This document shows, piece after piece, positions 24,901-46,992 of a DNA stretch of 64,000 nucleotides. The translations under genes and the position numbers were made by a program. Each line of letters begins with the position of its first letter. Positions within the stretch are counted from its first letter, which is position 1. A model generated the notes under the pieces. It was not told the origin of the DNA, did not search any database, and saw only the letters and a program-made list of their open reading frames with translations. The DNA lies in the NCBI GenBank assembly GCA_002392765.1, contig DGHT01000058.1, positions 9,326-73,325 of the forward strand. The letters are read 5' to 3'. The stretch is from Verrucomicrobia bacterium UBA3841 (GTDB lineage Bacteria; Verrucomicrobiota; Kiritimatiellia; RFP12; UBA1067).

Positions 24901-27900
24901 GGCATAACGCTCGCCGGCGAGCTTAAGGCGGCGGCGCTGAGCAATTTCGGCGGCGGCACCACCATAACGACAACAGACGATGGCGTATTCACGCTTGTTT
25001 CCAATAGCGATACGGATGACTTGAATGTCGATTACACTCGCATTCAAGGAACAGGCACTTTGAAGTTCGAGGGGTCAAAATACCGCACAATCTCCACGAA
25101 CAACTTCCCGACTGCGATGATAGTTGAGAATAACATCAGCAATGGCCTTATCCATCGTCTTCCGGGAGAGGAAGTTGCGATTGGAAGCCTCTCCGGTACC
25201 GGCCAGATGCGCAGCGACTGGGGTGGTAGCGGCAGCACGGGCGATCGCGATCTTCGCATCCTCCAGGCGAAAGATACGACGTATTCGGGTCTTTTCGCCA
25301 GCAACAACGACCGTATCGATGAAGTGTACGTCGCACCTGGCGCATCCACGGCAGGTACGCTTACGCTCTCCGGGACGCAGACGGCATCGAACGGTTTGAT
25401 TGTCGAGACTGGTGCATCCGTCAACCTCACCGGCACGTGGGTAGGCGCGACGACGGTCGCTGGCACGTTCGGCGGCACCGGCACGCTCACGGGCAACCTG
25501 ACCTTCAGCGACGGCGCGACGTTCAAGGCAAACGCCTCCGCTCTCACCGTTTCTGGCACTGTCACGATTCCAGCCGGCGAAGGGGAGTCGCTCACGATTG
25601 ATGCGGCCAACCTTGACGCAGACGAAGTCACCATCCTCTCCTCCGAATCGATTACCACGGAAACCGATGTCTCCAAGGTGACCGTTGACGGACTTTACAC
25701 CGTCGAGGCTGTTGCTGGTGCCCTCAAGCTCGTTAGCACAAGGGTTGAGGTTACTGTCCCTGCAATTAACAATGCGACAGTAACGGTTTCCGTTGGCGGC
25801 GAGACGATTGGAACCGAGGCGGGAACCTACAAGGTCGCCCCTGACGCTGTAGTCATTGCGACATACGCTGCCGAGGCAGGCTATGAGATCTCTGGCCAGA
25901 CGGTGTACACGATCGATGTCTCGAATAGCGAGACGACGTTCAATCCTGCCGGGACGACCGAGGTCAAGCAGTATGTGGCGCAGATTTACGGCGGCGAGAA
26001 GTACACAACGCTCCAGGCGGCGGTGGATGCCGCAGTGCGCAACTCCAAAATCATCGTTCTCGCAAATGAAACAGATGGCGCGACGATTCCATCGAAAGAC
26101 ATTTCGTTCTACATCTACACAGGCGCGTTTACGACCGGCGAAATACTGGATGCGACGGGCGATTTCATCACGACCAGGACGACAGAGAATATTTCGATTT
26201 CCGACGATATTCATGCCGACAAGGTGACTGCCACAAAGTACAGTGTTGCAGCGGCGTTCATGGCGGTGACGATCGACGGCACGCGCACCCTCTACGGACA
26301 GGCAAATGCTAACGACGCTTTGACTGCCGCCAACGCCGGCCCGATCGGCACGACGGTAGAGTTTCTTTCCGGCGATCCGGCAAGCTATGCCGAGTATCTG
26401 CCTATGTTTGACTACGACTCCAAAACGGGCGTATATACAAAGGTGGCCAATCCTGTCGCCGCCGTCTATAGCGGCGTCCAGCAGTTGAGCGTCCACAGAA
26501 CGCTCGCCGAAGCCGTCGCGGCGGCGGAGAACGGCCAGACGGTCAAGCTGTTGGACGGCATTGAGCTTGAAAGCGCGGCAGAGATCGCCTCCGGCAAGTC
26601 CATCACAATCGATTTGAACGGCAAGACGGTTGCGGGGCCGGCGGGTGGATATGCGTTCTCCAACGCAGGCGGCGTGACGATTGTCGGCAATGGCACGGTC
26701 ACGGGAGCGGGCGGCATCGTCTCCAACACGGCGAGCGGCGCCACGGTCGCCATCTCGAACGGAACGTACACCGTGACAGGCGATCTCTTCGGCAACGTCG
26801 AGGGCGGAACGATTGCAGTCAGCGGCGGCACGTACAACCAGTCCGTGGCAGACGAGTATCTTGCCGAGGGCTATGAAGTCACGGACAACGATGACGGCAC
26901 GTACGGCGTCCGCGAGGACAAGGGCTGGATCTATGCGGCGCCGGGGTACTGGAACTACACCGGTGCGTGGACTGGCGTGACGCCCGACGATGACGATCAG
27001 AAGGTCACCATCGAGTCCGGAGCGGCCTATACCGCGAGCAATGCGTCCGACGGTCGGCTGGTCACGGTTGAAATGACCGCCAGCTTCGCCGATGTGAACG
27101 AGGACGAACCCGACGCGACACTTGCAAACGCCAAGGGAGCGGTCAGGCTCGGCAAGGGCGAGACGGACGGCACATACACGTTCCAGCTCCTCACTTCCGA
27201 GAACTCGACTCCGGCGTGGAAAGATGCGGCAGGCTTCGCTCCTGCGAAGGAGACGGACTACACCTTCGTATTCGTGTTCGATCTCACGAACAAGACATAT
27301 ACGGCAGGTGTCGTAGTCGGATCAACGACGAATGAGCTCTCCGTCGGCGGCGGGACGGCGATTCCGTTTGCCGCGCAGAACGACAACCCGGTACAGACGA
27401 TCAACTTCGTCGGCGAAGGCACGGTATCGTCGATCAAGGGCGGCTACGAGACGCCGGAGCCTCCCCCTGCGGGATTTGTCGAGGACGAAGAGGTAACGCT
27501 CGACGACGGCACGGCGACGCTTACCGAGGATCAGGCCAAGTGGCTCAACGCCTGCGGAGACAAGGCCGCTGTTGCCGCGAAGATCGCGACGATGGATTCG
27601 ACGGCGTTCAACAACGCGTATCTCCTTAACCTCAATATCACCGGCGAATTCAGCTACGAGTTCAAGGTGACCGCGATTGAGGTCGGTGATGACGACGTGA
27701 CGCTGACCGTCTCGCTGACGCGCACGGGAGCGCTTGACGAAACTACCAAGATTAACGGTACGGTCGCGCTTACGGGTACCGACGAGCTTGGCAAGACGTT
27801 CGAGACGATCGACGAGGCAACTGTAGTCGACGAGGACTTCAGCGAAGACGCCACCACAACGATCACGCTCGACAAGGGCGATGCAAAGTTCTTCCTGCCG

Positions 27901-27912
27901 GTGATCCGGTAA
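21994..27912 (+). CDS. Giant secreted adhesin-like protein (1972 aa) with autotransporter-associated beta-strand-type repeats
   Basis: Signal peptide (ALALCFATPLVSWADA). It is T/G/N/S-rich, with repeated G(T/A)GTLTL(A/S)G...N.Y.G.T.V-like strings (GLGTLTLAGENKISAATIEIGGG, AGTLTLSGTQTASNGLIVETGASV). No membrane anchor or beta-barrel is evident at the C-terminus. Confidence 0.75.
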   Translation: MSTLTTKITRAALALCFATPLVSWADAITAVNPVTGETETYTYKFTGTDIWNGTEYWQDSNGDNPSAVPAKSGDNIWAPILFAGDTININASMSVEGWNLRMGLYNGASVTLKNLQKLQGGLGMWITVDSSSHCTIEAMANKKLANANPLCLYSANEGGIAWTQELSSSGNESGDTAMPFHYYLAGNGTVAYNGGIAAAAGGAHVIKQADVTLSGNSEVVSKTLVSFTSSSTTFTADAAIKVKNGDNVLKTVYLTSVTTADDTTLTAEDDVGACELVQTPTGIVLYYVDGDPADVNVEEKTYKPSININFTNGASNGLTTQSDVGLSGYEVPGTSWNNYVVANSTFSTVNAVDSTGAASAMSGVSVTISGTRGSYSCGNLTPSSNPLHGYIDENGNNPTPTVTVTGIPYYKYRVLVYHSTDSGSVPFGYDTINGKNYTYENDALSEGTTAWGNAGAQDSANAIAEGGNVLVTEALSGSTLTVVGHRAGGASNARGCIAAIQIIEVKADVGENDLEIPVSGDTQYTVEETKELSGTVYLTGLGTLTLAGENKISAATIEIGGGVTLVVNADRLDATTFTGAGTVVYDGLQPETTKGFDNSAWTGTVWVKNVGDTLKGEATDAKVTTRLGSDTTDATSNELNKWGNANSFVKFTNVRAFMAKADVPWTLVLEDDDTNYAWYNNEGWTARSITIAALKGDGTFWDINDGGCRPYLNFGDASQFTGTIKALGKQVFLNDTTNIGDASSGLAGRITVPANQTLTVASGKTWHTSNGLVVNGTLNVNGTLASDSTTAAVSGSGTVVFTGSAPSPTGDAWWKNASWTGTVQMKDVTNLVGGTNWTGTNFLPNDYGNTGSVLELYNCSGWLPNNNNYQCTVPLKVTGTLTINDGISGNKFVISHLSGSGAIHTTSNGATTTLQILEADGFTGYVQLNSKRVVFGNMLPSEYTVGNIYVGEGFSFTVPNSNVAWYGTGGITLAGELKAAALSNFGGGTTITTTDDGVFTLVSNSDTDDLNVDYTRIQGTGTLKFEGSKYRTISTNNFPTAMIVENNISNGLIHRLPGEEVAIGSLSGTGQMRSDWGGSGSTGDRDLRILQAKDTTYSGLFASNNDRIDEVYVAPGASTAGTLTLSGTQTASNGLIVETGASVNLTGTWVGATTVAGTFGGTGTLTGNLTFSDGATFKANASALTVSGTVTIPAGEGESLTIDAANLDADEVTILSSESITTETDVSKVTVDGLYTVEAVAGALKLVSTRVEVTVPAINNATVTVSVGGETIGTEAGTYKVAPDAVVIATYAAEAGYEISGQTVYTIDVSNSETTFNPAGTTEVKQYVAQIYGGEKYTTLQAAVDAAVRNSKIIVLANETDGATIPSKDISFYIYTGAFTTGEILDATGDFITTRTTENISISDDIHADKVTATKYSVAAAFMAVTIDGTRTLYGQANANDALTAANAGPIGTTVEFLSGDPASYAEYLPMFDYDSKTGVYTKVANPVAAVYSGVQQLSVHRTLAEAVAAAENGQTVKLLDGIELESAAEIASGKSITIDLNGKTVAGPAGGYAFSNAGGVTIVGNGTVTGAGGIVSNTASGATVAISNGTYTVTGDLFGNVEGGTIAVSGGTYNQSVADEYLAEGYEVTDNDDGTYGVREDKGWIYAAPGYWNYTGAWTGVTPDDDDQKVTIESGAAYTASNASDGRLVTVEMTASFADVNEDEPDATLANAKGAVRLGKGETDGTYTFQLLTSENSTPAWKDAAGFAPAKETDYTFVFVFDLTNKTYTAGVVVGSTTNELSVGGGTAIPFAAQNDNPVQTINFVGEGTVSSIKGGYETPEPPPAGFVEDEEVTLDDGTATLTEDQAKWLNACGDKAAVAAKIATMDSTAFNNAYLLNLNITGEFSYEFKVTAIEVGDDDVTLTVSLTRTGALDETTKINGTVALTGTDELGKTFETIDEATVVDEDFSEDATTTITLDKGDAKFFLPVIR

Positions 27913-28810: not shown

Positions 28811-28824
28811 GATAGATTTGAAAT

Positions 28825-28953
28825 CAAGGAGATGCGGCATCTTGCCGCGTAGAAAAGTTGAAAGGTTGAAAAGTTGAAAGGTTGAAAAGTCAAGGAGATG
28901 CGGCATCTTGCCGCGTTTTACTATTGGACGGCGCGGGACGCGCCATCTCCTTG
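28825..28953 (+). repeat. Composite REP cluster (right copy)
   Basis: Units lie at 28825-28849 and 28891-28915, with a (GTTGAAAR)x4 spacer and the inverted variant unit at 28926-28953. Confidence 0.9.
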
Positions 28954-28978
28954 TCAAGCATGAAAATTATGATATAAT
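28951..28978 (+). promoter_or_regulatory. Promoter TTGTCA-16 nt-TGATATAAT; the -35 overlaps the REP end; the ATG is 7 nt downstream (leaderless)
   Basis: Read directly, with no Shine-Dalgarno before the ATG at 28986. Confidence 0.5.
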
Positions 28979-28985
28979 ATCTTCA

Positions 28986-30383
28986 ATGAAAATCGGCATA
29001 TACGAGGTCGTGCGCCTTTTGGGAAAAGGCGGAATGAGCGAGGTGTACGAGGTTGCAGACCCGAGATTGGGTTCGCGTCTTGCACTTAAGATATACAACT
29101 ACCCCAAAGACGATCCCGAGGTTCGGCGCAGATTCGAAATCGAAGGCAGGCTTCTGGCGAGGCTTTCGCATCCCGGCATCGTCAAGGTTTTCGATATCGG
29201 CGAGGACGGGGACAGGCCGTATTTCGTAATGGATCTTGTTCTCAATCCGGAGGGTGAATGCCAGACGCTCGCCGACGTGCCGGACGGGTCCGTCGATGAA
29301 AAGACGATCGGAATGTGGTACGACGGCATACGCGACGCGTTGGGCTACATACACTCCCAGGGAGTGGTGCACAGGGATCTCAAACTGCAGAATGTCATGG
29401 TGGGTCCGGACGGTCGCGCCATCCTCGCCGATTTCGGCGTTTCGAAGATATTCGAGCCGCCGGACGGATCCGAGCGCAGGGTCGATGCTGTCAGCACTCT
29501 GGTCAGAATCCGCGACGGAAGCAAGCCTGTGATGGGCTCGCTCGGATACATGGCCCCGGAACTGGAGATGGGGGTGGAAGCCACCGCCAAATCCGACTGG
29601 TACGCGCTTGGCGTGATAGTATACAAACTTCTGACGGGTACGTGGTGCGATTCGAGGACCGACATCGTGTCGACGCTCGAGACGTACGATCCCGTCTGGC
29701 TTGAAATAATTCCCAAGCTCCTGCATTCGAATCCCGAGGGCCGGGAATGTCCGTCGTGGGCCGACACGAAAGAAGAGCTGCGCGAAAAGGCCGAATTCAA
29801 GGCCGAAAAGCGTCTTGACCGCGAAAGGCGCCGTTTCAGAAGCGCCCGCCGCTTTGCAAGGGCCGCGTCGCTTGCCGCGCTTGCCATATCCGCCGTGTGC
29901 GTATTTTCCACCGTCAAGTACACGCAGACGAGGAAGCGTCTCAAGCAGACGGAGATCCGGCTGCTGTATCCTACATTCGACAGGCTTTTCAAGATCCCCT
30001 CGGCGGGAAGGGCGGGAACAGACGAGGATGGCCGGCGCGGACAGGTTCCGGTGTCCGAGTGGGAGATGGCCCAGGTCGACGCCTGGTTCCTCACCCACAA
30101 GTATTTCGACGCGCTCTTCGACGGCAAGATGACTTTCAACGAGATGAGCGAGGCCGTGCGGCTCCTCAACAGAAAGATCCAGAGAGGCGAGTTCGACGAT
30201 ATCTGGGGCGACGAATACACCGAACAGGGAGAGGACGACGAACCGCTCAAGGAGATTTTCACATTGGCCATGAAGCGGCTGGCCAAAGCCGAAAAGAAAC
30301 TGCACGCCCGCGGGGTGGACGATTCCGCCGCGCCGGCCGGCAACACCGATACGGGGACGGATGAAAATGGGAAACTCCACTAA
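28986..30383 (+). CDS. Membrane-anchored Hanks-type Ser/Thr protein kinase
   Basis: GKGGMSEVYEV...LALK, catalytic HRDLKLQNVMV, DFGVSK and GSLGYMAPE. A TM segment (AASLAALAISAVCVFSTV) and a ~140-aa C-terminal domain follow. The ORF-track start at 28908 reads through REP and is rejected. Confidence 0.85.
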   Translation: MKIGIYEVVRLLGKGGMSEVYEVADPRLGSRLALKIYNYPKDDPEVRRRFEIEGRLLARLSHPGIVKVFDIGEDGDRPYFVMDLVLNPEGECQTLADVPDGSVDEKTIGMWYDGIRDALGYIHSQGVVHRDLKLQNVMVGPDGRAILADFGVSKIFEPPDGSERRVDAVSTLVRIRDGSKPVMGSLGYMAPELEMGVEATAKSDWYALGVIVYKLLTGTWCDSRTDIVSTLETYDPVWLEIIPKLLHSNPEGRECPSWADTKEELREKAEFKAEKRLDRERRRFRSARRFARAASLAALAISAVCVFSTVKYTQTRKRLKQTEIRLLYPTFDRLFKIPSAGRAGTDEDGRRGQVPVSEWEMAQVDAWFLTHKYFDALFDGKMTFNEMSEAVRLLNRKIQRGEFDDIWGDEYTEQGEDDEPLKEIFTLAMKRLAKAEKKLHARGVDDSAAPAGNTDTGTDENGKLH

Positions 30384-36142: not shown

Positions 36143-36526
36143 ATGAAAAAAAGAATGCTATATCTGCTGTCTGCGCTCGCTGTGTGCGCAGGATGCGTTT
36201 CGTACCGCACGCCGCCCGAAGACCGCCGCGTCACCGTGTCGCCGGACCTCGGCGCAAGCGTATGGGTGACGGATGTGCGGCTCGCAAAGGCGCAGTCGCA
36301 GCACTGCACGCTCCAGGCAAACGTTGCGAACAACACCGGCGGAGTGGTCCGCATGGAGTACAAGGTCGTCTGGCTGGATTCCGACGGTGCGGAGATCCCG
36401 TCGGTCGTCTCCACATGGCAGCCGATGTCGGCCGCCGCGCGCAACGTGGTCGGCCTCACGGCCACGGCTCCTTCGCCGGAGGCGGTCGACTTCCGCCTGT
36501 ACGTGCAGGAAGCAAAGGGATATTGA
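36143..36526 (+). CDS. YcfL-like lipoprotein (DUF1425 family)
   Basis: 127 aa with lipobox LAVCAGC, L.ANVANNTGGVVRMEYKVVWLDSDGAEI and AVDFRLYV, which follow the YcfL pattern. It lies adjacent to an lpoB-like gene, as in enterobacteria. Confidence 0.65.
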   Translation: MKKRMLYLLSALAVCAGCVSYRTPPEDRRVTVSPDLGASVWVTDVRLAKAQSQHCTLQANVANNTGGVVRMEYKVVWLDSDGAEIPSVVSTWQPMSAAARNVVGLTATAPSPEAVDFRLYVQEAKGY

Positions 36527-36551: not shown

Positions 36552-37166
36552 ATGAACAGAACCGTACCAGCCATAGCCGCCGCCGCGATTGCGGTGGTAC
36601 TCGCCGGGTGTACAACGCCCACGACGAGGATCGACATGTACAACGACCACGGTCCGCAGGTTGCCGGACTCGACTACCGCGACCTGCAGGAGGCTGCGTC
36701 CGCCACGCTCCAGTCCCTGTTTGCCAGCGGCCGGCTCGACCGCACGGACGGGCAGGCCTACGTGCTGACAGTCGGCAGGGTTGCGAACGACACTCCGCAG
36801 CATTTCGACACCGACACGCTCACCTCGTACATCACCGAGGAGCTGATGAACAGCGGCAAGGTCATGGTGACATCGGCGATGGCGGCGAGCGAATCCAACC
36901 GCGACGAGATGATACAGGCCGCCCGCAGCGTGCGCGGCGACGCCGAGTTCAACCAGGCGACGGTCGCGAAGACCGGACAGCTGGTCGCGCCGACGCACAG
37001 TCTCTACGGCAAGATCGTCCAGCGCGAGGTCCGCATGGACAACGGCGACAAGCAGATAGAATACTACTTCCAGCTGCGCATCACCGAGATCGCCACCGGT
37101 CTGCAGTGGTGGCAGAAGCAGTACGTAATAGGCAAGCGGGCCGACGCCAAGACGCCTACCTGGTGA
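36552..37166 (+). CDS. LpoB-like lipoprotein (penicillin-binding protein activator family, COG3417)
   Basis: Lipobox VLAGCT. VLTVGRVANDTPQHFDTDTLTSYITEELMNSGKVMVTS and YYFQLRITEIATGLQWWQK parallel the E. coli LpoB C-domain as I recall it. Confidence 0.68.
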   Translation: MNRTVPAIAAAAIAVVLAGCTTPTTRIDMYNDHGPQVAGLDYRDLQEAASATLQSLFASGRLDRTDGQAYVLTVGRVANDTPQHFDTDTLTSYITEELMNSGKVMVTSAMAASESNRDEMIQAARSVRGDAEFNQATVAKTGQLVAPTHSLYGKIVQREVRMDNGDKQIEYYFQLRITEIATGLQWWQKQYVIGKRADAKTPTW

Positions 37167-37205: not shown

Positions 37206-38489
37206 ATGAAGAAAACCGTTATGTCGTTCGCGGCGGCCCTGTGTGCGGCTGCGTTCGCGCAGCTTCAGCAGTCGAACAGCATCAAGACCGCGCACGGGCG
37301 GGGGCGCAACGCCGACTACCGCACCGCCGTCTACGAAGCGCTGGTGCAGGCCGCATCGCAGGTGCAGGGAGTTTCCCTGCAGGATTCCCGCGACGCATTC
37401 ATGGACTCCACGGCCCAGCTGCGGAAGACGAATGCCGGAGAAAGCGACATCAGCGAAATCCGCGAGTCGCTGAAGCAGACCGTGAGCGCCAAGACGAGCG
37501 GACGCGTGCTTAGCTACGAGACGACCGAGGAGCGGTTCGACAAGGAGACGAACCTCTGGTATATCGAGCTTGACGCCAAGATTCCGGGGCAGTATGTCGT
37601 AGGGCCGCATCCCGACAACAGGCGTCGGCTCGTCGTCATGCCGTTCCGCGTTCTCACCGGGAAGGTGAATATTTTCGGACAGGAAGCGGTGCCCGCTCCG
37701 TCGTGCGAAGAATTCGCCCGCCGCCTGAACGAGAACCTGACGCAGACGCGCCGTTTCACAATGCTCGACCGCGAGTTCAACAGCGAGACGCAGGCGGAAC
37801 TGGACCGCCTGAACCTCGAAAATGCGTCGGCAGGCGACTTCGGACGTTTCCAGCAGCTTCTTGTGACCGACTACATGGTCATCGGCAACGTGAGGTTCTA
37901 CGATTCTCCGGCGGCCGTCCAAAACCCGTACACCGGCACGGCGTCAATGCCGGACGGACCGTTCCTGGAAGTCGGATACAAGGTCATTCTGGTCCCCACG
38001 ACCCAGCTCAAGTGGGCCGGCACGGTGGTCGTCCCATATTCGGCCGCGGGCGGTACGAGTCCGGACGCCGCGCTTCAGGGTGCGTACACTGCCGCGGCGC
38101 AGGAGGTCTGCCATGAAATCATAGACAACATCTATCCGCCGCGTATCACGGCCAAGACGACGTTCGAGCTCGTGCTGAACCAGGGAGGAAAGAACTTTGC
38201 GCCCGGACAGGTTCTCGACGTGTTCCGCCGGGGCGAGGAGATACTGGACGTTGCGAGCGGGGAGACGCTGGGGGCGCCGGAGGAGCTGATCGCCCGCATC
38301 CGCATTACGCGCGTGACGCCGAAGATGAGCTACGCCGTCGTCGCGGAGGGAACGCCCATCGACCAGATCGAGATCGGTTCCGTGGTGCGCCGCCCCCAGG
38401 CGGTCGGCTCCTTTGGCGAGGAACCGGGCGCCACTTCGCCGGTGCAGGTTTCGCCGGCGGGAACTGTCGCGCCCCCGTGGAAGAAGTAA
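37206..38489 (+). CDS. Secreted two-domain protein, possibly LPP20-like N-domain plus CsgG/FlgO-like domain (function unverified)
   Basis: Signal peptide. The N-domain is GRGRNADYRTAVYEALVQAASQVQGVSL. The middle region RRLVVMPFR...LTQTRRFTMLDRE...YMVIGNV resembles CsgG-family lipoproteins. Assigned by pattern only. Confidence 0.45.
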   Translation: MKKTVMSFAAALCAAAFAQLQQSNSIKTAHGRGRNADYRTAVYEALVQAASQVQGVSLQDSRDAFMDSTAQLRKTNAGESDISEIRESLKQTVSAKTSGRVLSYETTEERFDKETNLWYIELDAKIPGQYVVGPHPDNRRRLVVMPFRVLTGKVNIFGQEAVPAPSCEEFARRLNENLTQTRRFTMLDREFNSETQAELDRLNLENASAGDFGRFQQLLVTDYMVIGNVRFYDSPAAVQNPYTGTASMPDGPFLEVGYKVILVPTTQLKWAGTVVVPYSAAGGTSPDAALQGAYTAAAQEVCHEIIDNIYPPRITAKTTFELVLNQGGKNFAPGQVLDVFRRGEEILDVASGETLGAPEELIARIRITRVTPKMSYAVVAEGTPIDQIEIGSVVRRPQAVGSFGEEPGATSPVQVSPAGTVAPPWKK

Positions 38490-38650
38490 ACTCCCAATAA
38501 GGGAACGCGCACGCGAAACGTCCTTGAACCGAAAATCGAAAATTTCAGTGTCACACTGTCGCGCCGTGTGCGTATAGATAGTAATGGGGTGTTGGCAACT
38601 AAAATCCCCACGAGGAGAAAAACGAGAAAAACAAAAAAGGAGAAAAACAA

Positions 38651-40378
38651 ATGACAATGAAAACAATGAAACTCGCCCTGGCGGCCGTCGCCGTCTTCGG
38701 CGTCGGCGCCGCCACGGCGCAGGAGATGGGGGCTGCGCCGACGGATTCTACGCCAGCGACCACAACGGCAGATGCTCAACAGAATGAATCTGTTGTCGAT
38801 ACCCCCCTGATGGTGAACGAAATTGTCTCCAAGGATGACGGAGAGAAGATAGTCGAGGAAGCCCAACAGACGCCTCCTGCCGAGGTTTCTCCGAAGAACG
38901 CCAGTGACGCAATGGTCAAATGGGTGACGGACAACGGTTATGCGGAGGGGTTTAACGACGAGCGCGGATATTTCCTTCAGATTGGTGTCGCCCGGGACAA
39001 TTCCTTGGATCCGCTTGACGAGGACTTCATGACGAAGCGTGAAATGCTGTATCGCGAGGCGCAGCTGCGCGCCAAGGTCAATATCAGCGGTTTAGTCGAC
39101 CGCGAGATCAGCGGCAGCAACTGGAAGAACGGCCTTAGCGCGAATGACGTAAAGAAATTCGAGGCCAAGTATGCGCGTGAGATCAATGAAATGAACGAAA
39201 TGAAGCGCAAGGTCGCCAACTTGATGCTCGCGATGGAGGCCGCCGAGACGGAATGCCTAAAAGGGGTTACCGCCACAGATCGGCTCAATGCTCTTGTCGA
39301 CAAGGTCATTAAAAAACTGGATAGGTCTTATGACGCAGGCCATATCGTCGCGGAGAAAAAGGCCCGCTACGATGCCATCAAGGCGGCCTATGATGATGCG
39401 AAGGCTGCAGCAGACGAGCTGGAGCAGAAGAAAATCGACATGTTCCCAAGCCAGACCATGAACGCAAGGGTTGATTCGGCTGTCAGAATCAAATTGCACG
39501 GCGCCATCCCCCTGCATCAGATTGAATCTTTTGTCAACGATGAATTCCAGGTGGCGGTTGCCATGATATGGAGCCCTAAGCTTGAGGATCGCGCTGCAAA
39601 AATGCTTGCCCGTAAAGATGTCGGAAAAGGTAAAGCCACGGAGAATCGCACGCTTAGCGAATATCTTAATTCAAACCGAGAAGCATTGAGAGCAATGGTC
39701 GGCGCTCGCCAGTATATAGACAAGAACGGGAAGCTGTATTTCATCGGCATTTCTGCGCAAGAGCTGTCGAAGGATGCGGTGGAAAAGGATGAGGCGATAA
39801 CTTTTGCGGATCAGATGGCGATGCAGGCTGTTGTCATGTCGCTGTTCACGGAAGGTAAAGGCGTCTCGTCGGCGCAGGCTGCTCTCGCAAAACGCAAAGG
39901 CCGCAGTGGAGATGTGATGAAATCGCTTGCAGAGGATATGGAAGAGAACACTCCGAAAGATTTGAGTGTTGGGGGCCTGGGCAAGGTGTATAGCTTGGAG
40001 ACGACATATCCAATCACGGGAAAACCCATTTACATTTCTGTTGCAGCAATTGATTCGACGCTTGCAGCACGTTCGGCTGCCATCAAGCGCGCTTGGGATG
40101 AGAGGGCGAATGACACGGTAAGGACCCTTCATGCTATCGCAGGAGAACGTCAGGGAGCCGAAGATGCATTCGAAGCCGCAAAGAATTCAAAAACGGAGTT
40201 TGACGCCGCGCGTGCCAAGGCTCGCGGAGAAATTGAGGAAGAGGTCAATCGCATTCGTGGTAAGCAAGGGGGCGTGAATGTTACCCCTGTCGCACCTGTT
40301 GGTACGTCAACGCCCGAAAGACAAGGTGCGCGCCAGGGAATCTTTGGTGGAAATGCGGGTCACAGTGATGATTTTTAA
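38651..40378 (+). CDS. Secreted protein, lower-G+C island paralog family member 1 (575 aa, unknown function)
   Basis: Signal peptide (LALAAVAVFGVGAATAQ). It shares the blocks FQVAVAMIWSPK, NGKLYFIGISAQELS and PITGKPIYISVAAID with the proteins at 41729 and 42765, and carries a coiled-coil insertion. Confidence 0.7.
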   Translation: MTMKTMKLALAAVAVFGVGAATAQEMGAAPTDSTPATTTADAQQNESVVDTPLMVNEIVSKDDGEKIVEEAQQTPPAEVSPKNASDAMVKWVTDNGYAEGFNDERGYFLQIGVARDNSLDPLDEDFMTKREMLYREAQLRAKVNISGLVDREISGSNWKNGLSANDVKKFEAKYAREINEMNEMKRKVANLMLAMEAAETECLKGVTATDRLNALVDKVIKKLDRSYDAGHIVAEKKARYDAIKAAYDDAKAAADELEQKKIDMFPSQTMNARVDSAVRIKLHGAIPLHQIESFVNDEFQVAVAMIWSPKLEDRAAKMLARKDVGKGKATENRTLSEYLNSNREALRAMVGARQYIDKNGKLYFIGISAQELSKDAVEKDEAITFADQMAMQAVVMSLFTEGKGVSSAQAALAKRKGRSGDVMKSLAEDMEENTPKDLSVGGLGKVYSLETTYPITGKPIYISVAAIDSTLAARSAAIKRAWDERANDTVRTLHAIAGERQGAEDAFEAAKNSKTEFDAARAKARGEIEEEVNRIRGKQGGVNVTPVAPVGTSTPERQGARQGIFGGNAGHSDDF

Positions 40379-41732
40379 GAAAATCAGTTTTGTAGCACTG
40401 GCGATGCTTTCGTTGGTGCGTACAGCCATGGCGGGGGAAGCTCCCCCCGCCATGGTAACAAGCTACTACAACATGCGCGTCAAGAACGAGCCTTCAGGGG
40501 TCTATGAATGGGCTGAGCAGGACCTTCTTTTCGTACAGGTACGAATACCAGAGGCGACGGGGGATGCAGCTGAGGAGATGGAAGGGCGAGTCCTTTTGGC
40601 GGAGCACAAGGAGTTGTTTGCATGGCTTGCTCAGCATGCCGCAAAGGACCGTAAAGATCCGCAACTGAGTCCGGGCATGGAACGTATGCGGAGATTCGTA
40701 CGCGAAGAACTTCCGCTCTGGGAGTACGATGCGAATTGGAAATATTCTTTCAATGGGCCGCATCTCACGCGACATGAAATTGGAGAGAGAGTTTGCTGTG
40801 CTGTATGTAAGAAGAGTGAGGTGCTGGCAACGATGCCGTCGGCATTCCTAAAACCAGTAGGGGAAGACACATGGATTCGTGGTGGAAAAGGAATTGTGCG
40901 CGACAAATATCCTGGAAAGGCTGACCGACTATTCATGTGGCAAATAGGGCTTTTGGATGCATTGGCTCTCTCACTTGAAAATGGGAAAAGCCTGGATGCA
41001 TGGGTAAATGAGTTCGGAACGAGTGACAATGCTGCGTATCTTGAATTCAAGAAGGTGGGTAAGGACTGTGAGAGGTATCTCGCGGAATCGGAGACGGCAC
41101 GATTCTTTGCATCAGAGAAATTGCGTCTGGAAACTTTACCGGACAAGATTTCATACGAATGGGACAAGCGGCGACCGACAATGGAGAAGAGCGTTGAGGC
41201 TCATACTGTTACGAACAAGATAAACGAAACGGAATTTGAAGTTGTCGTCACCGAACGCGAAGTCCGTAGAAATGCCCGCATTCTTCACAAGGTGGTGACC
41301 AAGATGGCTGTCGACCCGAAATTTGAGAAGCTCTTCCTTTCAGGCGGATCAATGGAGAATGTCGCTTCCGAGAGAACTGCCCTGGGGCTGGCGGCAGAGA
41401 AGCAGTTCTATGAGAATGGCGGCAAGACATTTGAACAACGGGAAAAATTTTTGATTGACGCATTGCGGGAAAACCCGGGCGACAAGGTTCTTTGGAATCT
41501 GCTGGGTCGGATGATGATGATCCGTCAGGATTGGCATGGCGGGCTCGTCTGCATGCGAAATGCTCTTCGGCTTGATCGAGAATATGCATTCGCCTTGACA
41601 AACGTTGCAATCATCTACCATAGTCTTGGCTTTGATGAACTGGCATTTGGCGCAGCCATTGCCGTGATGGGGGTGACGGATGACGCATGGTGCAAGAAAG
41701 AGGCGGAAAAGTTGATCAGGGGAGACAAGTGA
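40368..41732 (+). CDS. Secreted TPR-containing protein of the island operon
   Basis: Signal peptide MIFKKISFVALAMLSLVRTAMA and a C-terminal TPR-like region (NPGDKVLWNLLGRMMMIRQDWHGGLVCMRNALRLDREYAFALTNVAIIYHSLG). The start overlaps the upstream gene by 11 nt. Confidence 0.65.
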   Translation: MIFKKISFVALAMLSLVRTAMAGEAPPAMVTSYYNMRVKNEPSGVYEWAEQDLLFVQVRIPEATGDAAEEMEGRVLLAEHKELFAWLAQHAAKDRKDPQLSPGMERMRRFVREELPLWEYDANWKYSFNGPHLTRHEIGERVCCAVCKKSEVLATMPSAFLKPVGEDTWIRGGKGIVRDKYPGKADRLFMWQIGLLDALALSLENGKSLDAWVNEFGTSDNAAYLEFKKVGKDCERYLAESETARFFASEKLRLETLPDKISYEWDKRRPTMEKSVEAHTVTNKINETEFEVVVTEREVRRNARILHKVVTKMAVDPKFEKLFLSGGSMENVASERTALGLAAEKQFYENGGKTFEQREKFLIDALRENPGDKVLWNLLGRMMMIRQDWHGGLVCMRNALRLDREYAFALTNVAIIYHSLGFDELAFGAAIAVMGVTDDAWCKKEAEKLIRGDK

Positions 41733-42751
41733 AGTACATTATTCTGTTATGTGTGCTTTTATTGTCTGCTGTTGTGCTTGCCGAGTCAGCGGTTGATGTT
41801 TGTGACCGTATGGTCGTCACAAAATTGGAAGAGGGGGGGCTACATCTAGGGCACAACGAAGAGAGTGGCGAGTTCATTGTTGTAGCTCACTCTCAAACAA
41901 GATGCGCAGATCCGTCCATTGACATTGCGACGTGGGCGTTTTGCCGGGACGCTTTTCTGAAGGCGCATGTCAAGGCCAGGCGTGAAATAGCCAACATGGT
42001 CAAAGGGACGCTGAAGGCGTCGAATACAGTCTCCAGAAGATCCGTTGATCGGAAAAGAAGCCGGACGCAGACTGCCGTTATTGCGATGAATGCCGAAGAG
42101 TTGCAGTTGGGGGTGATTGTGCTGGCGACAGAAGATGCATGGCGAGATGGTGTTTATGCCGTCTCTGTCGCAATGGCGTGGAGCGAGAAGCGGGATAGCC
42201 AGGCCCGTAAATCAATGGCCGGATTGATTGATCCGGCAGTAGACTGGAAATCGCAATTACGCAGTTTGGTTGCGGCGGCGAGGATCGAGTTGTTGCCGCC
42301 TTTCGGGGAATTTGTTGATTCGAATGGATTTGTTCATTTTTTTGGGACTGATGTGTCAGATGTGCTTTCTTGCCCTGTGAAGGGACGAAGTGCTGCGCTC
42401 CTGTCTATGGAGGTACGAGCGTTGGCACGGCTTCAATCAGTGCGCGATGGGGCGGGGGTGTCCGCATTGGAAACGCAAATTCACGCGAAAAAAGATGAGA
42501 AGTCGGAGGCGGTCATCAAAGCATCTGTTGGTGGGTTAGGAGTTTCTGCGACAGGAGCAGAGCCTGTTAATACGTGTGTGTTTGAGGGAAATGTTAACTC
42601 AGAAGCCTTTAAAAGATCGCTTTATGCAATTGTCTATGCAACCGATTGTATGAAGCCATCGCTCCAGCGAGAGAAAATAGAATCATCAAACTCGGTAAAT
42701 CCCGGCGTCATGATCTGGAACCCCAACTCAGGCAAATTCGAGAAGCAATAG
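41729..42751 (+). CDS. Secreted protein, island paralog family member 2 (340 aa)
   Basis: GTG start overlapping the upstream stop (GTGA), then signal peptide YIILLCVLLLSAVVLA. Shared blocks are YAVSVAMAWSEK, NGFVHFFGTDVSDVLS and RSLYAIVYATD. Confidence 0.62.
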   Translation: MKYIILLCVLLLSAVVLAESAVDVCDRMVVTKLEEGGLHLGHNEESGEFIVVAHSQTRCADPSIDIATWAFCRDAFLKAHVKARREIANMVKGTLKASNTVSRRSVDRKRSRTQTAVIAMNAEELQLGVIVLATEDAWRDGVYAVSVAMAWSEKRDSQARKSMAGLIDPAVDWKSQLRSLVAAARIELLPPFGEFVDSNGFVHFFGTDVSDVLSCPVKGRSAALLSMEVRALARLQSVRDGAGVSALETQIHAKKDEKSEAVIKASVGGLGVSATGAEPVNTCVFEGNVNSEAFKRSLYAIVYATDCMKPSLQREKIESSNSVNPGVMIWNPNSGKFEKQ

Positions 42752-42764
42752 GAATAGGCAGATT

Positions 42765-43955
42765 ATGAAGAAGGTACTTAAGTTCTTTTCTTTAGCGGTT
42801 CTTGCGGCTTTCGCCGGATGCGGCAAAGATGACACGGAAGTTGCGGTAAAAGAAGAATCTGGCCCGCAGCCGCAATCGGCTGCAGCGTCATCGGCTTCCA
42901 ATGATGTAACGCGGCAATCATCGCGTGAAGTGATGGAAGAGTTACTTGCGACCAGAGGAATTTGCCAGGGCGTGGATGTTGATAAAGGGAGGATCCTGGC
43001 TGTAGAATCGCGTGCCTTCTCCTTGAAAAAAGAAAAAAACAATTCTGTTGAGGAGACGTACGATTTTTCTGATGATTCAGAAGATGATTTTGAAACACTC
43101 CGATTCAAAACAGCTTGGAAGGCGTATGCCGACGGACTCGCTGAAATTGCACAAATGCTCGGTACTCAGATTTACGGCGAAACGGTAGAGAATAAAACGA
43201 ATCGAACAGTAGAGGACGCGTCGAACAGGGCTGAGATTCAGCACTCAATTGCTGACATAAGGCTTGATGGCATCGTGACGGTTGCAGCTACAGAATCATA
43301 CGACAAACAGGAAGAAGAATACGAATTTACAGTGGCTGTCTGCCAAAGTAGCAAACGGCAGAAACTATACAAGGATGGATTGCTGGGCGATGGTTCCAGT
43401 CCGCCAGGTCATTTTTCGTTGAAAGAATGGATTGACGAAAATTCTTCAATGGGCATAATCTGCCCGCAATCGTTTGTCGACAATGATGGTGTTTGGTGGC
43501 GTGTTGCCGGTGTGCCGATTGATCTCAGCGCTGGGCGCAACTCAAAGAAAGTAGCATTATTGTCCGAGAAGGCGAAGCGTTATGCCTACGAAGCGGCAAT
43601 CCGCACGATCTGGGTTGACGTATCCGCTTCCATGTCGCTCATGTCGACATTGTCTGTTTCTGCTGGCGGCGAATCTGAATGCAAGGAGAAGATTTCAAGG
43701 AAAGTCTGCATAAAGCCACTTCGCGACATTTTGCCGAGCGATCCATTCCGCGTCAAATGGCTGGAGTTTGACAAGGTTAACCCCATCACGGGCAAGCCGA
43801 TTCGCCTGATTGTTTGTGCAATTCGTGATGATGCCGGCGCCAGAGACGCAGAGAGGAAATTCTTTGCGGAGCGGCTTATAAAAGAGCGGCAAGAGGCTTA
43901 TGAGCGTGGCCGCAGAGATGCTGAACGGCTGATGCCTAAAAAGGAAAGTGATTAA
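42765..43955 (+). CDS. Lipoprotein, island paralog family member 3 (396 aa)
   Basis: Lipobox LAAFAGCG. Shared blocks are YEFTVAVCQSSK, DGVWWRVAGVPIDLS and PITGKPIRLIVCAIRD. Confidence 0.68.
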   Translation: MKKVLKFFSLAVLAAFAGCGKDDTEVAVKEESGPQPQSAAASSASNDVTRQSSREVMEELLATRGICQGVDVDKGRILAVESRAFSLKKEKNNSVEETYDFSDDSEDDFETLRFKTAWKAYADGLAEIAQMLGTQIYGETVENKTNRTVEDASNRAEIQHSIADIRLDGIVTVAATESYDKQEEEYEFTVAVCQSSKRQKLYKDGLLGDGSSPPGHFSLKEWIDENSSMGIICPQSFVDNDGVWWRVAGVPIDLSAGRNSKKVALLSEKAKRYAYEAAIRTIWVDVSASMSLMSTLSVSAGGESECKEKISRKVCIKPLRDILPSDPFRVKWLEFDKVNPITGKPIRLIVCAIRDDAGARDAERKFFAERLIKERQEAYERGRRDAERLMPKKESD

Positions 43956-43960
43956 ACTCT

Positions 43961-44947
43961 ATGAATCCGCTGCGCAATCAGAACATCAACTATCGGAAGG
44001 GGTGGTTCTTCGTCACCTTCCAGGTTGCGCACAACAAGACTGCGCTCGGCGTGGTGGCCGACAAGAAACTGACCCTCAACGCCCTTGGGCGCATGGTCGA
44101 TGAAAATCTGCGGAAGCTGGGCGCGCTGTTTCCCGAACTCGTCATCGACACCGCCATAGTGATGCCAAACCACGTGCATTTCGTTGTGAAGATCGAAAGC
44201 GCGGAGCATGATCTTTCATGGTTCATCGGCCGGTTCAAGTCTTTTACGGCCAACCAATACCAGAAGATGGCCAAGGCCGGGGAGTGCGTGGACATAGGGC
44301 CGAGCCTCTGGCAGGGCAGCTACTACGACAACCTCGTGAGCAGTCATGACGAGCTGGAGAATATTCGACGCTACATCCTGCGCAATCCGGAGCGCTGGGA
44401 AGACGACCGCTTCGGTCCGGTGACAGCGAACGTATTTGGCAACGTGGAGCTGTTGAACGGCAGTCTGGCGGCTTTCGTGGCCTCCGATACGCGAGACAAC
44501 TGGCGGGCGGAGAAGCCGCACTTGCGCTCCGTGCGCGAACTGCTTGGCCGCGAGCCAATCGGGCGGGAGGCGCCGCTCGTCTCGACTTTCACAAGCTTTG
44601 AGGAGCAAGGCGCGCTTGCGCGGCGGCTGTCGGAACGGTTGCCGTTTATTTGGGTTGATCCGGCGGGAATCAAGGCAAATCTGCCTGCTGCCGTGCGAGC
44701 GGCGTGCGCGGAAGGCTGGGGGCTGGTGATCTCGCCGGTACCTTCAGGAACCGGCGTAAACAAGCAGCGGGCGGTATGGTGCAACCGCTGGGTGCTGAAG
44801 GTGGCGTTGCGGATTTATGTGGGGAGTATCAAGAAGGGGGGGACGCTGGAGACTCTCCTGTCCCCGGCACGGAGGCCGGGGACCCACGATATTGGGAATC
44901 CCCGGCACGGAGGCCGGGGACCACGATATTGGGAAAGTTCAGCCTAA
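43961..44947 (+). CDS. RAYT-like HUH/Y1 transposase with a ~170-aa C-terminal extension of unknown function
   Basis: WFFVTFQVAH, HUH motif VMPNHVHFVVKI, LWQGSYYDNLV and the Tyr motif RRYILRNPERW, followed by an unmatched C-terminal region. The last ~30 codons read through REP hairpins, so the true stop is uncertain. The start lies 5 nt after the island's last gene. Confidence 0.7.
   Translation: MNPLRNQNINYRKGWFFVTFQVAHNKTALGVVADKKLTLNALGRMVDENLRKLGALFPELVIDTAIVMPNHVHFVVKIESAEHDLSWFIGRFKSFTANQYQKMAKAGECVDIGPSLWQGSYYDNLVSSHDELENIRRYILRNPERWEDDRFGPVTANVFGNVELLNGSLAAFVASDTRDNWRAEKPHLRSVRELLGREPIGREAPLVSTFTSFEEQGALARRLSERLPFIWVDPAGIKANLPAAVRAACAEGWGLVISPVPSGTGVNKQRAVWCNRWVLKVALRIYVGSIKKGGTLETLLSPARRPGTHDIGNPRHGGRGPRYWESSA
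44862..44934 (+). repeat. Second REP family: two tandem ~36-nt units CCCCGGCACGGAGGCCGGGGACC(C)ACGATATTGGGAA
   Basis: Each unit has a CCCCGGC-acggag-GCCGGGG hairpin. The units start at 44862 and 44900. A further GGGGTGGGC-ctcagt-GCCCGCCCC hairpin lies at about 44964-44987. Confidence 0.85.
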
Positions 44948-45006
44948 AATTTATAATATCGTAGGGGTGGGCCTCAGTGCCCGCCCCAAGGAAAGGAGAA
45001 ATAAAG

Positions 45007-45534
45007 ATGAAAAAAATCACTATGATGGCGGCGATTGCCGCTTCCATCGCGGCAATGGCGCAGCCGGTCACGCCCGAGACAGGGGTCGCGAACGACCACA
45101 CCGGAACCGCAGGGGGCGCCACGGGCGTGGTGTTCGTTCCGCGCACGGCGGAGACCGGGTACGGCTACGACGACGGCATGACCGTCATCGGATTGACATT
45201 CCTCCCGTGGGCGGCGCCGAACTCGTCCTGGGATGTCACGGGCGTTCGCATGAACCTCGGCTGGGGCGCATACCGCGACACGTCTGCGTTTGACTTTGGG
45301 GTGTTCTCCGCCAGCCGCAGCGCAAGCGGAATCTTTTTCAACCTCTTCGGGAACTATGCGACGGCCGGGGCGACGGGCTGGCAGACGGGTCTCGTAAACG
45401 TGGTCGACGACCGGATGAGCGGGCTTCAGATCGGTCTCGTCAACTACGCGGAGCGGCTGTGCGGCGTACAGATCGGCCTGCTGAACTTTGCGCATTCGCA
45501 GCATTTCTTCCCGATCGTCAACATCGCCTGGTAG
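45007..45534 (+). CDS. Secreted surface-repeat protein with G-x-Q-I/T-G-L-V/L-N repeats
   Basis: Signal peptide MKKITMMAAIAASIAAMA and a C-terminal WQTGLVNVV..SGLQIGLVNYA..CGVQIGLLNFA. AAGGAG RBS. Confidence 0.6.
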   Translation: MKKITMMAAIAASIAAMAQPVTPETGVANDHTGTAGGATGVVFVPRTAETGYGYDDGMTVIGLTFLPWAAPNSSWDVTGVRMNLGWGAYRDTSAFDFGVFSASRSASGIFFNLFGNYATAGATGWQTGLVNVVDDRMSGLQIGLVNYAERLCGVQIGLLNFAHSQHFFPIVNIAW

Positions 45535-45540: not shown

Positions 45541-46992
45541 ATGGCGATGAATACCTGGAGAATATCCGCCGTCGCGTTCGCGCTTGCGTGCGCAGCCGGG
45601 TGCCGCACGGTGAAGGATGTAATCAACGACTACGATGCAGCCATCGCGTCCGGCGATTATGTCAAGCCGATAGCCGAGACGTCGGAGCTGGCCGGCAAGA
45701 GCGGCGATACGCAGCTGCTGTGGCAGCTTCTCGCCGGTTCTGCGATGTACATGGCCGACGACAAGGACGGCGCGCGCCGGATGTTCGACGCGGCGGAGGC
45801 GTCCTTCGCAAGGAACGACACCGTCTCGGTGTTCGCCCAAGGCGGCGAAGGGGCGCTTGCGATGATGACGAACGACCGGGTGTTCTCGTATGACGGCGGC
45901 GGACAGGACCGCATATTCACCTGCCTGTACAAGTCGATCGACATGATGGCATCCGGGGACGCCGCCGGTGCGCGCGTGGAACTCAACCGCGCTTCGAGAT
46001 ACCAGGCGAACTGGCTATACGACCGCCGGAAGGACATCGACGCCGCGGCGAAGAAGATGGAGGAAGACGCCAATGCGTACGCAAAACAGCAGAAAGCGGG
46101 GTCCCAGGAAGACCGTTCGCGCCATGTGGCTGCGGCGATGAAGGATTCGTCCTTCTGCGCCGACATCAAGGAGAAGTGCAACTTCGACCCGGCGACGTCC
46201 GGCGACTTGAACGTCCTTGCGCCCAAGGATTACATGAACGTCTACGCGGCGCACCTGACCGGGGTGTTCCGCTGGCTGAACGGCGACAGCGACCAGAACC
46301 ACCTCCGCGACGCAGCCGCGCTGGCGCCCGGCTGCGCGACGGCCGCGCGCGACCGCAAAGAGCTGGCCGCCGGTGTCCGTCCGTCCAACCAGGTCTGGAT
46401 ATACGTCGAGGACGGCTTGTGTCCGTGCCGCGAGGAGTGGCGGCTGGACCTGCCGCTCGTCCTTATACCGTACTTGAACAAATACATAATGTACGCGGGG
46501 ATGGCGCTTCCGTATCTGCGCTTCCGCGAGCACGGCGCCGTCTCCTGGTCGGTGCGGTCGGGCGGAGAAGCCGTGCAGATGGAGCGGCTGGCGGATGTCG
46601 ACGCCCTGATGAAGACCGAATACGACGTCTACATGCGCGGGGCGCTGGCGCGCGAGATAACGCGCGTCATCGTAAAAGCCAGCGTCCAGGTGGCGCTCGG
46701 AGTGACGGCCGAGAACGTGTCCGACAACTACACAAAGATAGCTCTCCGGGCCTCGCAGGCGGGGGCTGCCGTATGGGCGGCGTCGGTGACTGCGGCGGAC
46801 ATGCGCTGCTGGACTTCCCTTCCCAAGACCGTGAAGGTGGCGCGCGTGGACCGTCCGGACGACGGACATCTGGAGATACTCGCCGATGCGCAGCGCATCG
46901 AGCTTGACCTTCCGCCCGGCAACGCGATCGTGTTTGTCCGCAAGCCCGGCCCCCTGGCCGTCCCTTCCGTGAAGACTGCGGTTTTCAAGTGA
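45541..46992 (+). CDS. Conserved hypothetical lipoprotein (483 aa)
   Basis: Lipobox FALACAAGC. The N-terminal half is helical and TPR-like, and there is no catalytic motif I can name. Confidence 0.55.
   Translation: MAMNTWRISAVAFALACAAGCRTVKDVINDYDAAIASGDYVKPIAETSELAGKSGDTQLLWQLLAGSAMYMADDKDGARRMFDAAEASFARNDTVSVFAQGGEGALAMMTNDRVFSYDGGGQDRIFTCLYKSIDMMASGDAAGARVELNRASRYQANWLYDRRKDIDAAAKKMEEDANAYAKQQKAGSQEDRSRHVAAAMKDSSFCADIKEKCNFDPATSGDLNVLAPKDYMNVYAAHLTGVFRWLNGDSDQNHLRDAAALAPGCATAARDRKELAAGVRPSNQVWIYVEDGLCPCREEWRLDLPLVLIPYLNKYIMYAGMALPYLRFREHGAVSWSVRSGGEAVQMERLADVDALMKTEYDVYMRGALAREITRVIVKASVQVALGVTAENVSDNYTKIALRASQAGAAVWAASVTAADMRCWTSLPKTVKVARVDRPDDGHLEILADAQRIELDLPPGNAIVFVRKPGPLAVPSVKTAVFK

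Follow-up and report, generated by a model that had tools for sequence, protein, structure and literature searches.

The 64,000-nt stretch of DNA analysed here (the window), from contig DGHT01000058.1 of Verrucomicrobia bacterium UBA3841, contains four co-directional genes, P1 to P4, which together form a cassette in the variable middle of a conserved envelope locus of nine to ten genes found in gut and rumen Kiritimatiellae (Table 1). The genes are tightly coupled, with an 11-nt overlap between P1 and P2, a GTGA overlap between P2 and P3, and a gap of 13 nt between P3 and P4, exactly as an earlier note made from the letters alone had read them, and the GTG start of P3 is backed by an orthologous ATGA junction in a related locus (L005). 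The same note had judged the region from 38490 onward to be lower in G+C by eye. Computed in 1-kb windows, the G+C content is 0.479-0.521 across 39001-44000, about 0.61 beside the cassette and mostly 0.58-0.65 in the remaining window, and the G+C content at third codon positions (GC3, calculated per gene) is 0.49-0.59 for P1 to P4 versus 0.78-0.83 for the flanking genes. The dip is therefore real, but it begins at the start codon of P1 (38651) rather than at 38490, and it ends at the stop codon of P4 (43955). Each of the four proteins carries a Sec or lipoprotein signal and the neighbouring genes encode lipoproteins, which bears out the envelope location that had been proposed for them, and searches of Pfam and NCBIfam returned no catalytic family, just as no catalytic motif could be named from the sequence.

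Sequence comparison confirmed that P1, P3 and P4 are true paralogs. The shared blocks from which this had been deduced are present, and the relationship was significant both in BLASTP (E = 5e-7 for P1 and P4, 4e-6 for P1 and P3, and 0.02 for P3 and P4) and in profile-profile alignments made with hhalign, which joined P3 to P1 over the whole two-domain body (probability 100, E 2e-45), P3 to P4 (probability 99.7, E 8e-27) and P4 to P1 (probability 99.4, E 8e-22). The coiled-coil insertion attributed to P1 was located at residues ~157-270; these ~110 amino acids are a predicted coiled coil and were left unaligned in the comparison of P3 with P1. Two other proteins of the locus were tried as relatives of this family by hhalign and rejected, namely P2 (probability 4%) and the 427-amino acid protein encoded upstream of P1 (probability 1%). 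None of P1 to P4 matched a curated family above its cut-off in Pfam or NCBIfam, and the sub-threshold matches (Tup_N, Adhesin_Dr, DUF1281_C and NrfG) were set aside as chance or coiled-coil similarities. A word-indexed search of 5.8 billion proteins found 28 P4 clusters and 45 P1 clusters, while a P4 profile run exhaustively with HMMER against 1.84 billion representatives gave 192 hits that sorted into P1-, P3- and P4-like proteins. With ~190 clusters counted at 50% identity, the paralogs are a rare family of two-domain exported proteins that is undescribed, as had been supposed; no match to a well-characterised family of known function was found.

The AlphaFold model of P4 (predicted local distance difference test score, pLDDT, 78; predicted template modelling score, pTM, 0.77) consists of two alpha/beta domains followed by a C-terminal helix. 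Its sole credible match in the PDB by Foldseek was 4QVR, the Francisella protein FTT1539c (probability 0.99, E 3.8e-3, 375 columns), with TM-scores of 0.37-0.45 (TMt 0.45). Profile searches of the PDB with the P4 and P1 families gave nothing or coiled-coil noise only, and the P4 model had no viral fold match in BFVD. In Francisella, FTT1539c occurs in outer-membrane vesicles and is immunoreactive (PMC10963506).

P2 is of a different kind. It had been called a signal-peptide tetratricopeptide repeat (TPR) protein, and the window sequence itself matches TPR families below the Pfam cut-offs (E 0.004-0.008). The assignment is borne out through its orthologs, eight of nine of which contain TPR_17 (best E 6.5e-9) and five of nine TPR_1. 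The matches always lie within the C-terminal ~100 residues, and the conservation of P2 is concentrated in the TPR.

Related loci were collected through their homologs of P4, of P1 or of the 427-amino acid protein (referred to below as FlgT-like) and are numbered from L001 onward. Scanning the GTDB genomes with a P4 pattern gave no relative, and scanning them with the FlgT-like protein gave L007-L012. Among the relatives are metagenome-assembled genomes of rumen and gut origin that are labelled Kiritimatiellae or Kiritimatiellia, Lentisphaerae and Verrucomicrobia. The genes run in the order YcfL-like, LpoB-like, FlgT-like, cassette, LA_2272-repeat and 483-amino acid lipoprotein, and the same order was seen in L001-L012, L014-L017 and L019-L024. 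P1-P2-P3 form the invariant middle of the cassette, while P4 and the transposase-like Y1 gene that follows it in the window are optional. The number of P4-type paralogs per locus ranges from 0 (L008, L010 and L012) to 3, including tandem-fused doubles in L016 and L019, and the last position of the cassette is occupied by the Y1 gene (the window and L001-L004), by an LpoB-like gene (L005, L011, L016, L019 and L023) or by nothing. L007 has no cassette at all and carries an AAA-ATPase_like/PDDEXK_9 gene in its place. This gene or pieces of it also turn up in several relatives exactly where the FlgT-like gene gives way to P1, which suggests that the left border of the cassette is a hot spot at which insertion or recombination recurs. 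Three more distant loci of low G+C are L018 (G+C 0.38), L025 and L026; in L018 and L026 the set is found again, as a fusion protein, DUF1425, a P1-like protein ending in ...DDDF and a TPR protein. The four genes had earlier been described as a four-gene operon; they are neither an autonomous operon nor an inserted island, since their place within the conserved locus is the same whether or not a relative shows the G+C dip.

Synonymous divergence (dS) and the ratio of nonsynonymous to synonymous divergence (dN/dS) were calculated gene by gene by the Nei-Gojobori method, as pairwise averages. Between the window and L020 the flanking genes are well diverged (dS 1.26 for the YcfL-like, 1.00 for the LpoB-like, 0.77 for the FlgT-like, 1.13 for the LA_2272-repeat and 1.46 for the 483-amino acid lipoprotein gene), whereas dS is 0.050 for P1, 0.034 for P3, 0.19 for P4 and 0.33 for P2; the L020 locus lies in a different chromosomal neighbourhood, and its P1 is 97% identical to that of the window. 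The opposite holds for the relatives with the closest flanks, L012 and L007, in which the cassette is 20-28% identical or absent, respectively. In L012, whose flanks are ~90% identical to those of the window, dS is 0.30-0.44 for four flanking genes and 1.40 for the FlgT-like gene, while P1 to P3 are saturated at 20-28% amino acid identity. Because dS is discordant in both comparisons, cassette and flanks have had separate histories, and the intermediate values of P2 and P4 point to further mosaicism. The exchange breakpoints fall in or adjoin the conserved flanking genes, which argues for replacement by homologous recombination. Since dN/dS is 0.05-0.29 everywhere, each allele is under purifying selection.

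The low G+C of the window cassette is consistent with a lower-G+C donor lineage. Among the relatives, the carriers L011 and L023 have an overall G+C of 0.53-0.55, and the cassettes of L008 and L010 match their surroundings, with no dip. Composition and discordant divergence thus both mark P1 to P4 as a horizontally transferred gene block, and horizontal acquisition, which had been inferred from composition by eye, is now upheld by the contrast in dS with L020. The acquisition brought in a different allele of a module already resident, and not a new system. The block also does not have the makeup of a classical genomic island, in that it occupies a fixed slot between the same genes and the Y1 gene beside it is dispensable; the only tRNA gene of the window is at 1068-1141.

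The 427-amino acid protein encoded immediately upstream of the cassette was modelled with AlphaFold2 (pLDDT 71, pTM 0.55). Foldseek matched the model to Vibrio FlgT (3W1E) with an E value of 3.4e-15 over 405 columns and all three domains, and to the FlgT chain of an electron cryo-microscopy structure of the LPHT ring (8Z5N_0; E 1.2e-14). TolB, CsgG, PelC and HpaA were matched via the middle domain only, the CsgG structures (4UV2, 4UV3 and 6L7C) at E values of 5e-5 to 1e-3. As judged from its predicted fold, the protein is a structural homolog of the H-ring protein FlgT in a non-flagellar context, there being no flagellar Pfam family among the called genes of any locus examined. Its signal peptide reads ...AAFA/QLQQSNS (the slash marks the cleavage site); the AFA/Q site is invariant and there is no lipobox cysteine at the cleavage site, so that the protein, like FlgT, would be soluble in the periplasm. 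The C-terminal tail SPVQVSP-GTV-PPWKK is invariant in this protein and its orthologs, and a loop at ~203-223, NASAGDFGRFQQLLVTDY, is strictly conserved and modelled with low confidence. Both are candidate partner contacts.

Several protein fusions and terminal peptides provide clues that the products of the locus might act together. In P0305, P0297 and P0283 a paralog body is fused to a CsgG/FlgT-like domain, with Pfam CsgG scores of 28-35 bits in the first two and of 20.5 bits, just below the cut-off of 20.8, in the third. P0203, P0207 and P0210 have long N-terminal extensions before a P4-type body, and Sel1/TPR repeats were found by Pfam in the extensions of P0203 and P0210 (P0207 was not scanned individually). 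A C-terminal xDF is present in 42 of 45 P1 homologs, an additional 38 remote representatives end in DF, and the usual form is G-D-x-D-x-D-D-F; at the other end, the sequence following the signal peptide is AQE-G in all P1 proteins. The P3 C-terminal sequence GVMIWNPNTGKFEKQ is common to eight loci, in seven of which the bodies are 20-35% identical and in the eighth, L005, 75%. A 75-amino acid lipoprotein encoded in L018 (14480-14707) ends in ...VDDDF, as does the P1-like protein next to it, and looks like a minimal, tail-only docking subunit.

The remaining features of the region are included in Table 1. The leader before P1 had been credited with a purine-rich run and a perfect 13-bp palindrome, and both are present. 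An inverted repeat of the form 6-1-6, the palindrome (CAGTGTCACACTG, CAGTGT-C-ACACTG, 38546-38558) occurs once in the window, with 0 expected, and is kept identically in L005 and half-conserved in L001. No Rfam match was found for 38490-38650 at E<=1, and a promoter and terminator scan, whose counts were not above shuffled expectation, placed nothing in this leader on the + strand; the leader is a possible internal promoter or operator. On the right flank, the last residues of the LA_2272-repeat protein are ...FFPIVNIAW. Outer-membrane beta-barrel proteins typically have such an aromatic C-terminus, and for this reason the protein may be a membrane-embedded anchor of the system. The 483-amino acid lipoprotein had no family match in Pfam or NCBIfam. 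A Ser/Thr protein kinase gene, often with a gene for an extracytoplasmic function (ECF)-type sigma factor (Sigma70_r2), adjoins the locus in several differing contexts, and the kinase may be a dedicated regulator. In the window, a second and sharper G+C dip (0.463 at 28001-29000) lies just upstream of the kinase gene, and a milder one (0.545-0.574 at 22001-26000) lies within an open reading frame (ORF) of 1972 amino acids that has no Pfam match.

Table 1. Features of the locus and its surroundings in the window, and selected genes of related loci (positions on the respective sequence)
Feature	Sequence	Position	Strand	Evidence and remarks
1972-amino acid ORF	window	21994..27912		
Ser/Thr protein kinase	window	28908..30383		
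YcfL-like lipoprotein (DUF1425)	window	36143..36526	+	Pfam DUF1425 E 4e-18; opens conserved locus; in all related loci
LpoB-domain lipoprotein	window	36555..37166	+	Pfam LpoB E 4e-35; 76-95% identity in relatives
FlgT-like three-domain periplasmic protein (predicted), 427 aa	window	37206..38489	+	model and Foldseek
Intergenic leader	window	38490..38650	+	palindrome and purine-rich run before P1 ATG
P1, exported paralog, 575 aa	window	38651..40378	+	coiled-coil insertion; ...DDF tail
P2, exported protein, 454 aa	window	40368..41732	+	variable ~330-aa N-terminal part; conserved C-terminal TPR
P3, exported minimal paralog, 340 aa	window	41729..42751	+	two-domain body; conserved tail GVMIWNPNSGKFEKQ
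P4, lipoprotein paralog, 396 aa	window	42765..43955	+	lipobox ...AFAG-C; optional cassette member
Y1 (HUH) transposase-like, RAYT-like gene, 328 aa	window	43961..44947	+	optional passenger
Two tandem 38-nt hairpin repeats	window	44861..44935	+	3' end of Y1 ORF
LA_2272-repeat protein, 175 aa	window	45007..45534	+	right flank; NCBIfam LA_2272_repeat 50.6 bits (cut-off 25); 57-88% identity in relatives
483-aa lipoprotein	window	45541..46992	+	last gene of locus; lipobox ...CAAGC; 52-83% identity in relatives
AAA-ATPase_like/PDDEXK_9 gene or fragment	L007	11324..13003		
AAA-ATPase_like/PDDEXK_9 gene or fragment	L023	1259..2938		
AAA-ATPase_like/PDDEXK_9 gene or fragment	L016	5157..5462		
AAA-ATPase_like/PDDEXK_9 gene or fragment	L019	9672..10004		
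AAA-ATPase_like/PDDEXK_9 gene or fragment	L001	5912..6000		
Ser/Thr protein kinase	L014	15729..17761		
Ser/Thr protein kinase	L018	1874..3809		
Ser/Thr protein kinase	L026	1900..3845		

The reading that we prefer, which is plausible if somewhat short of probable, is that the locus encodes an outer-membrane-associated scaffold in which variable subunits are docked on a FlgT-like core. In the H ring of Vibrio, as described in two recent electron cryo-microscopy studies, 26 copies of FlgT make up a ring, to which the lipoprotein FlgP attaches with its C-terminal tail (to F143) lying in a groove or in clefts between the FlgT subunits (bioRxiv 10.64898/2025.12.04.692373, 10.64898/2025.12.02.691832). 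By analogy, the FlgT-like protein together with the YcfL-like and LpoB-like lipoproteins would make up a conserved core at the outer membrane, and P1, P3 and the P4-type proteins would be variable subunits plugged into it via their conserved tails, as FlgP is into the FlgT ring. The constant terminal peptides (AQE-G and ...G-D-x-D-x-DDF of P1 and GVMIWNPNTGKFEKQ of P3) would bind the FlgT-like core, the TPR of P2 or both, with this TPR acting as an adaptor or chaperone for the P1, P3 and P4-type tails, and the P4-type lipoproteins would serve as the outer-membrane tether of the assembly. Entire cassettes would be replaced by homologous recombination via the conserved flanks, so that several deeply diverged allelic classes circulate, each under purifying selection. 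The structure may be seen from outside the cell by phage, predators or host immunity, and such exposure would account for the persistence and exchange of deeply diverged alleles. It is tempting to speculate further that the locus specifies a hitherto unseen, non-flagellar, H-ring-like organelle of bacteria of the Planctomycetes-Verrucomicrobia-Chlamydiae (PVC) group, in which a FlgT-type ring under the outer membrane carries interchangeable P1/P3/P4 'face' proteins that are swapped to evade recognition by phage or host, and which would be a living relative of the scaffold recruited for the flagellar disks of Vibrio and Campylobacter, but this larger picture we regard as doubtful.

A loose analogy with rings of LPP20/FlgP-type proteins and TPR partners had already been drawn in the earlier note. 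Part of it has gained substance from the FlgT-like neighbour and from the CsgG/FlgT-like and Sel1/TPR fusions, but the paralogs themselves could not be shown to be of the LPP20/FlgP type, 4QVR being their only structural match, and this is the first of several points that weigh against the scaffold. No LPP20 or FlgP chain was among the Foldseek PDB hits (E<1) for the P4 model, and LPP20 was matched by 2 of 23 P4-family members, at a best E of 0.0036 that is below the curated cut-off. DUF6844 reached at best 16 bits against a cut-off of 27 (E 0.003-0.03) in a handful of members, and precomputed PF20891 hits exist for 4 clusters. In the literature that we found, DUF6844 appears in one paper, where it is applied to Francisella FTL_0572; 4QVR (FTT1539c) is probably this DUF6844 member, an identification taken from the order of locus tags in two papers and not from a comparison of sequences. 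On the side of the core, the FlgT-like model is of modest confidence and its global TM-scores against FlgT are 0.25-0.31, for which reasons the match is best taken as domain-wise, and the protein had no Pfam match to FlgT_N, FlgT_M or FlgT_C, a scan at E<=0.1 giving only CsgG and AbrB-like. The structure models are of P4 and FlgT-like monomers, so that the ring and the docking of tails enter by analogy, and surface exposure is deduced from variability. A lipobox is present in P4 only among P1 to P4, and P1 to P3 could be purely periplasmic. Finally, positive selection was not seen in the pairwise-average dN/dS.

The main rival to the scaffold is curli-like (CsgG-type) secretion, with the 427-amino acid protein as the channel, P1, P3 and P4 as substrates or adaptors that yield surface adhesins or fibres, and P2 as a periplasmic chaperone or cap. 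The match of the middle domain to the CsgG structures is in its favour, as is the weak Pfam CsgG match of the window protein (16.7 bits against the cut-off of 20.8, E 0.0046), a cut-off that several orthologs and some of the fusion proteins pass. Hypervariable partners would suit surface-exposed substrates, and the constant ends of P1 might act as secretion signals. This explanation is weakened, however, by the full-length match to FlgT, which is ten orders of magnitude better than that to CsgG and covers three domains, and by the missing lipobox, since CsgG is a lipoprotein, whereas the AFA/Q site suggests that the 427-amino acid protein is soluble in the periplasm. This protein also has no evident amphipathic transmembrane hairpins, and P1, P3 and P4 are globular alpha/beta proteins rather than amyloid-like repeats. 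We therefore consider a secretion channel unlikely.

The locus might instead be a purely periplasmic housekeeping module for the upkeep of peptidoglycan or envelope, in which the paralogs are accessory and their diversity reflects neutral drift and hitch-hiking recombination. LpoB and DUF1425 domains are indeed present, similar lipoprotein operons in Campylobacter (Cj0089-0091) and Helicobacter (HP0018/HP1457) are tied to envelope integrity (PMC3100323, PMC11394524), and dN/dS is well under 1. Nevertheless, wholesale swapping between species with the flanks in place would be unusual for a housekeeping module, and so would the loss or expansion of paralogs from 0 to 6 (L007, L016 and L019). That the homology of the 483-amino acid lipoprotein to Cj0089/HP0018 is only putative also counts against this explanation, and we do not think it likely.

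A third explanation is that the cassette travels as cargo on a mobile element and that the neighbouring Y1 gene encodes the transposase which moves it, an enzyme of the RAYT (REP-associated tyrosine transposase) or IS200-like kind. Membership in the Y1/HUH transposase superfamily follows from a Pfam Y1_Tnp score of 39.9 bits (cut-off 23), and the HUH (HVH) and YY motifs are intact. The gene starts 5 nt past the P4 stop, and a copy 79% identical is found at the same junction in L001-L004. Two hairpin repeats, each consisting of TCCCCGGC-ACGGAG-GCCGGGGA followed by CCACGATATTGGGAA, lie within the last ~90 nt of the ORF, and a partial inverted copy follows just after it (element region 44861-44981). 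The L001 ortholog has only 236 amino acids compared with 328 in the window, which suggests that the window ORF may run on through the repeats. The RAYT-like gene that the earlier note had placed directly after the last stop is thus there, but the NCBIfam REP_Tyr_transpos score of 56.8 bits is under the cut-off of 80, and the hairpin repeats number only two, with no further copy in the 64-kb window. That this gene is not the vehicle is indicated by L020, whose nearly identical P1 is found without it; in L020-L022 the cassette is 97/91/98/89% identical and no Y1 gene is present. The gene is likewise absent from L005 and L011, and in these and L023 an LpoB-like gene takes its position. Its composition is host-like (G+C 0.604, GC3 0.75), unlike that of the cassette, the cassette is not bounded by terminal repeats, and the breakpoints lie where homologous recombination predicts them, in the conserved flanking genes. 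Transposition by the Y1 gene is accordingly very improbable. An anti-phage defence island or prophage remnant is scarcely credible at all, for although the low G+C, the variable slot and the AAA-ATPase_like/PDDEXK_9 neighbour in relatives might recall one, P1 to P4 had no PADLOC or PHROG hit and no BFVD fold match, are all exported, and contain no nuclease, ATPase or other effector domain.

Envelope proteins without a flagellar role are believed to be the source from which FlgT, FlgP and the disk proteins of high-torque flagellar motors were recruited. To our knowledge, hardly any free-standing relative has been described together with a defined set of partners, and the cell-surface biology of this phylum is almost unexplored. 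The locus offers such a free-standing FlgT-like relative together with a set of partners, and so has a bearing on how the periplasmic scaffolds of flagella arose. In addition, it delimits a rare protein family with clues to its interactions from fusions and conserved tails. Protein-encoding cassettes pass between species of rumen and gut much as O-antigen loci do, which points to strong selection from outside, for example by phage or host, on an envelope structure. The functions given here are predictions, and the locus provides a well-delimited and testable lead.

Among known systems, the Vibrio H ring has in common with the locus a FlgT-fold protein encoded beside small exported or lipidated alpha/beta proteins, and the FlgP tail ends in Phe just as the P1 proteins end in ...DDF. 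It differs in that the loci described here contain no flagellar genes and no Pfam FlgT, FlgP or FlgO match, and in that the partners are larger proteins of the two-domain 4QVR-like fold whose genes are hypervariable and horizontally exchanged. We know of no horizontal exchange of H-ring genes. TPR proteins, such as PflA and PflB of Campylobacter, do join flagellar scaffolds of this kind. Francisella FTT1539c (4QVR) resembles the P4 model in fold and is likewise exported, as well as vesicle-associated and of unknown function, but has no sequence-level significance with the P family, and the TM-scores are those given above. The curli (type VIII) system shares the CsgG/TolB-N-like middle domain and the presence of several small exported partners, and is set apart by the lipobox, transmembrane hairpins and amyloid-type substrates that are not evident here. 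The Cj0089-Cj0091 and HP0018/HP1457-Lpp20 operons combine LpoB-domain, YcfL/DUF1425-type and TPR lipoproteins and have been connected with adhesion, vesiculation or the upkeep of the envelope (PMC3100323, PMC11394524), and they have neither a FlgT-like gene nor a variable paralog cassette. In its genetic organisation the locus is like O-antigen and capsule loci and pilin islands, with conserved flanks, a deeply diverged cassette of lower G+C and discordant phylogeny; the cassettes of O-antigen and capsule loci encode enzymes of glycan synthesis, while the cassette described here encodes structural proteins.

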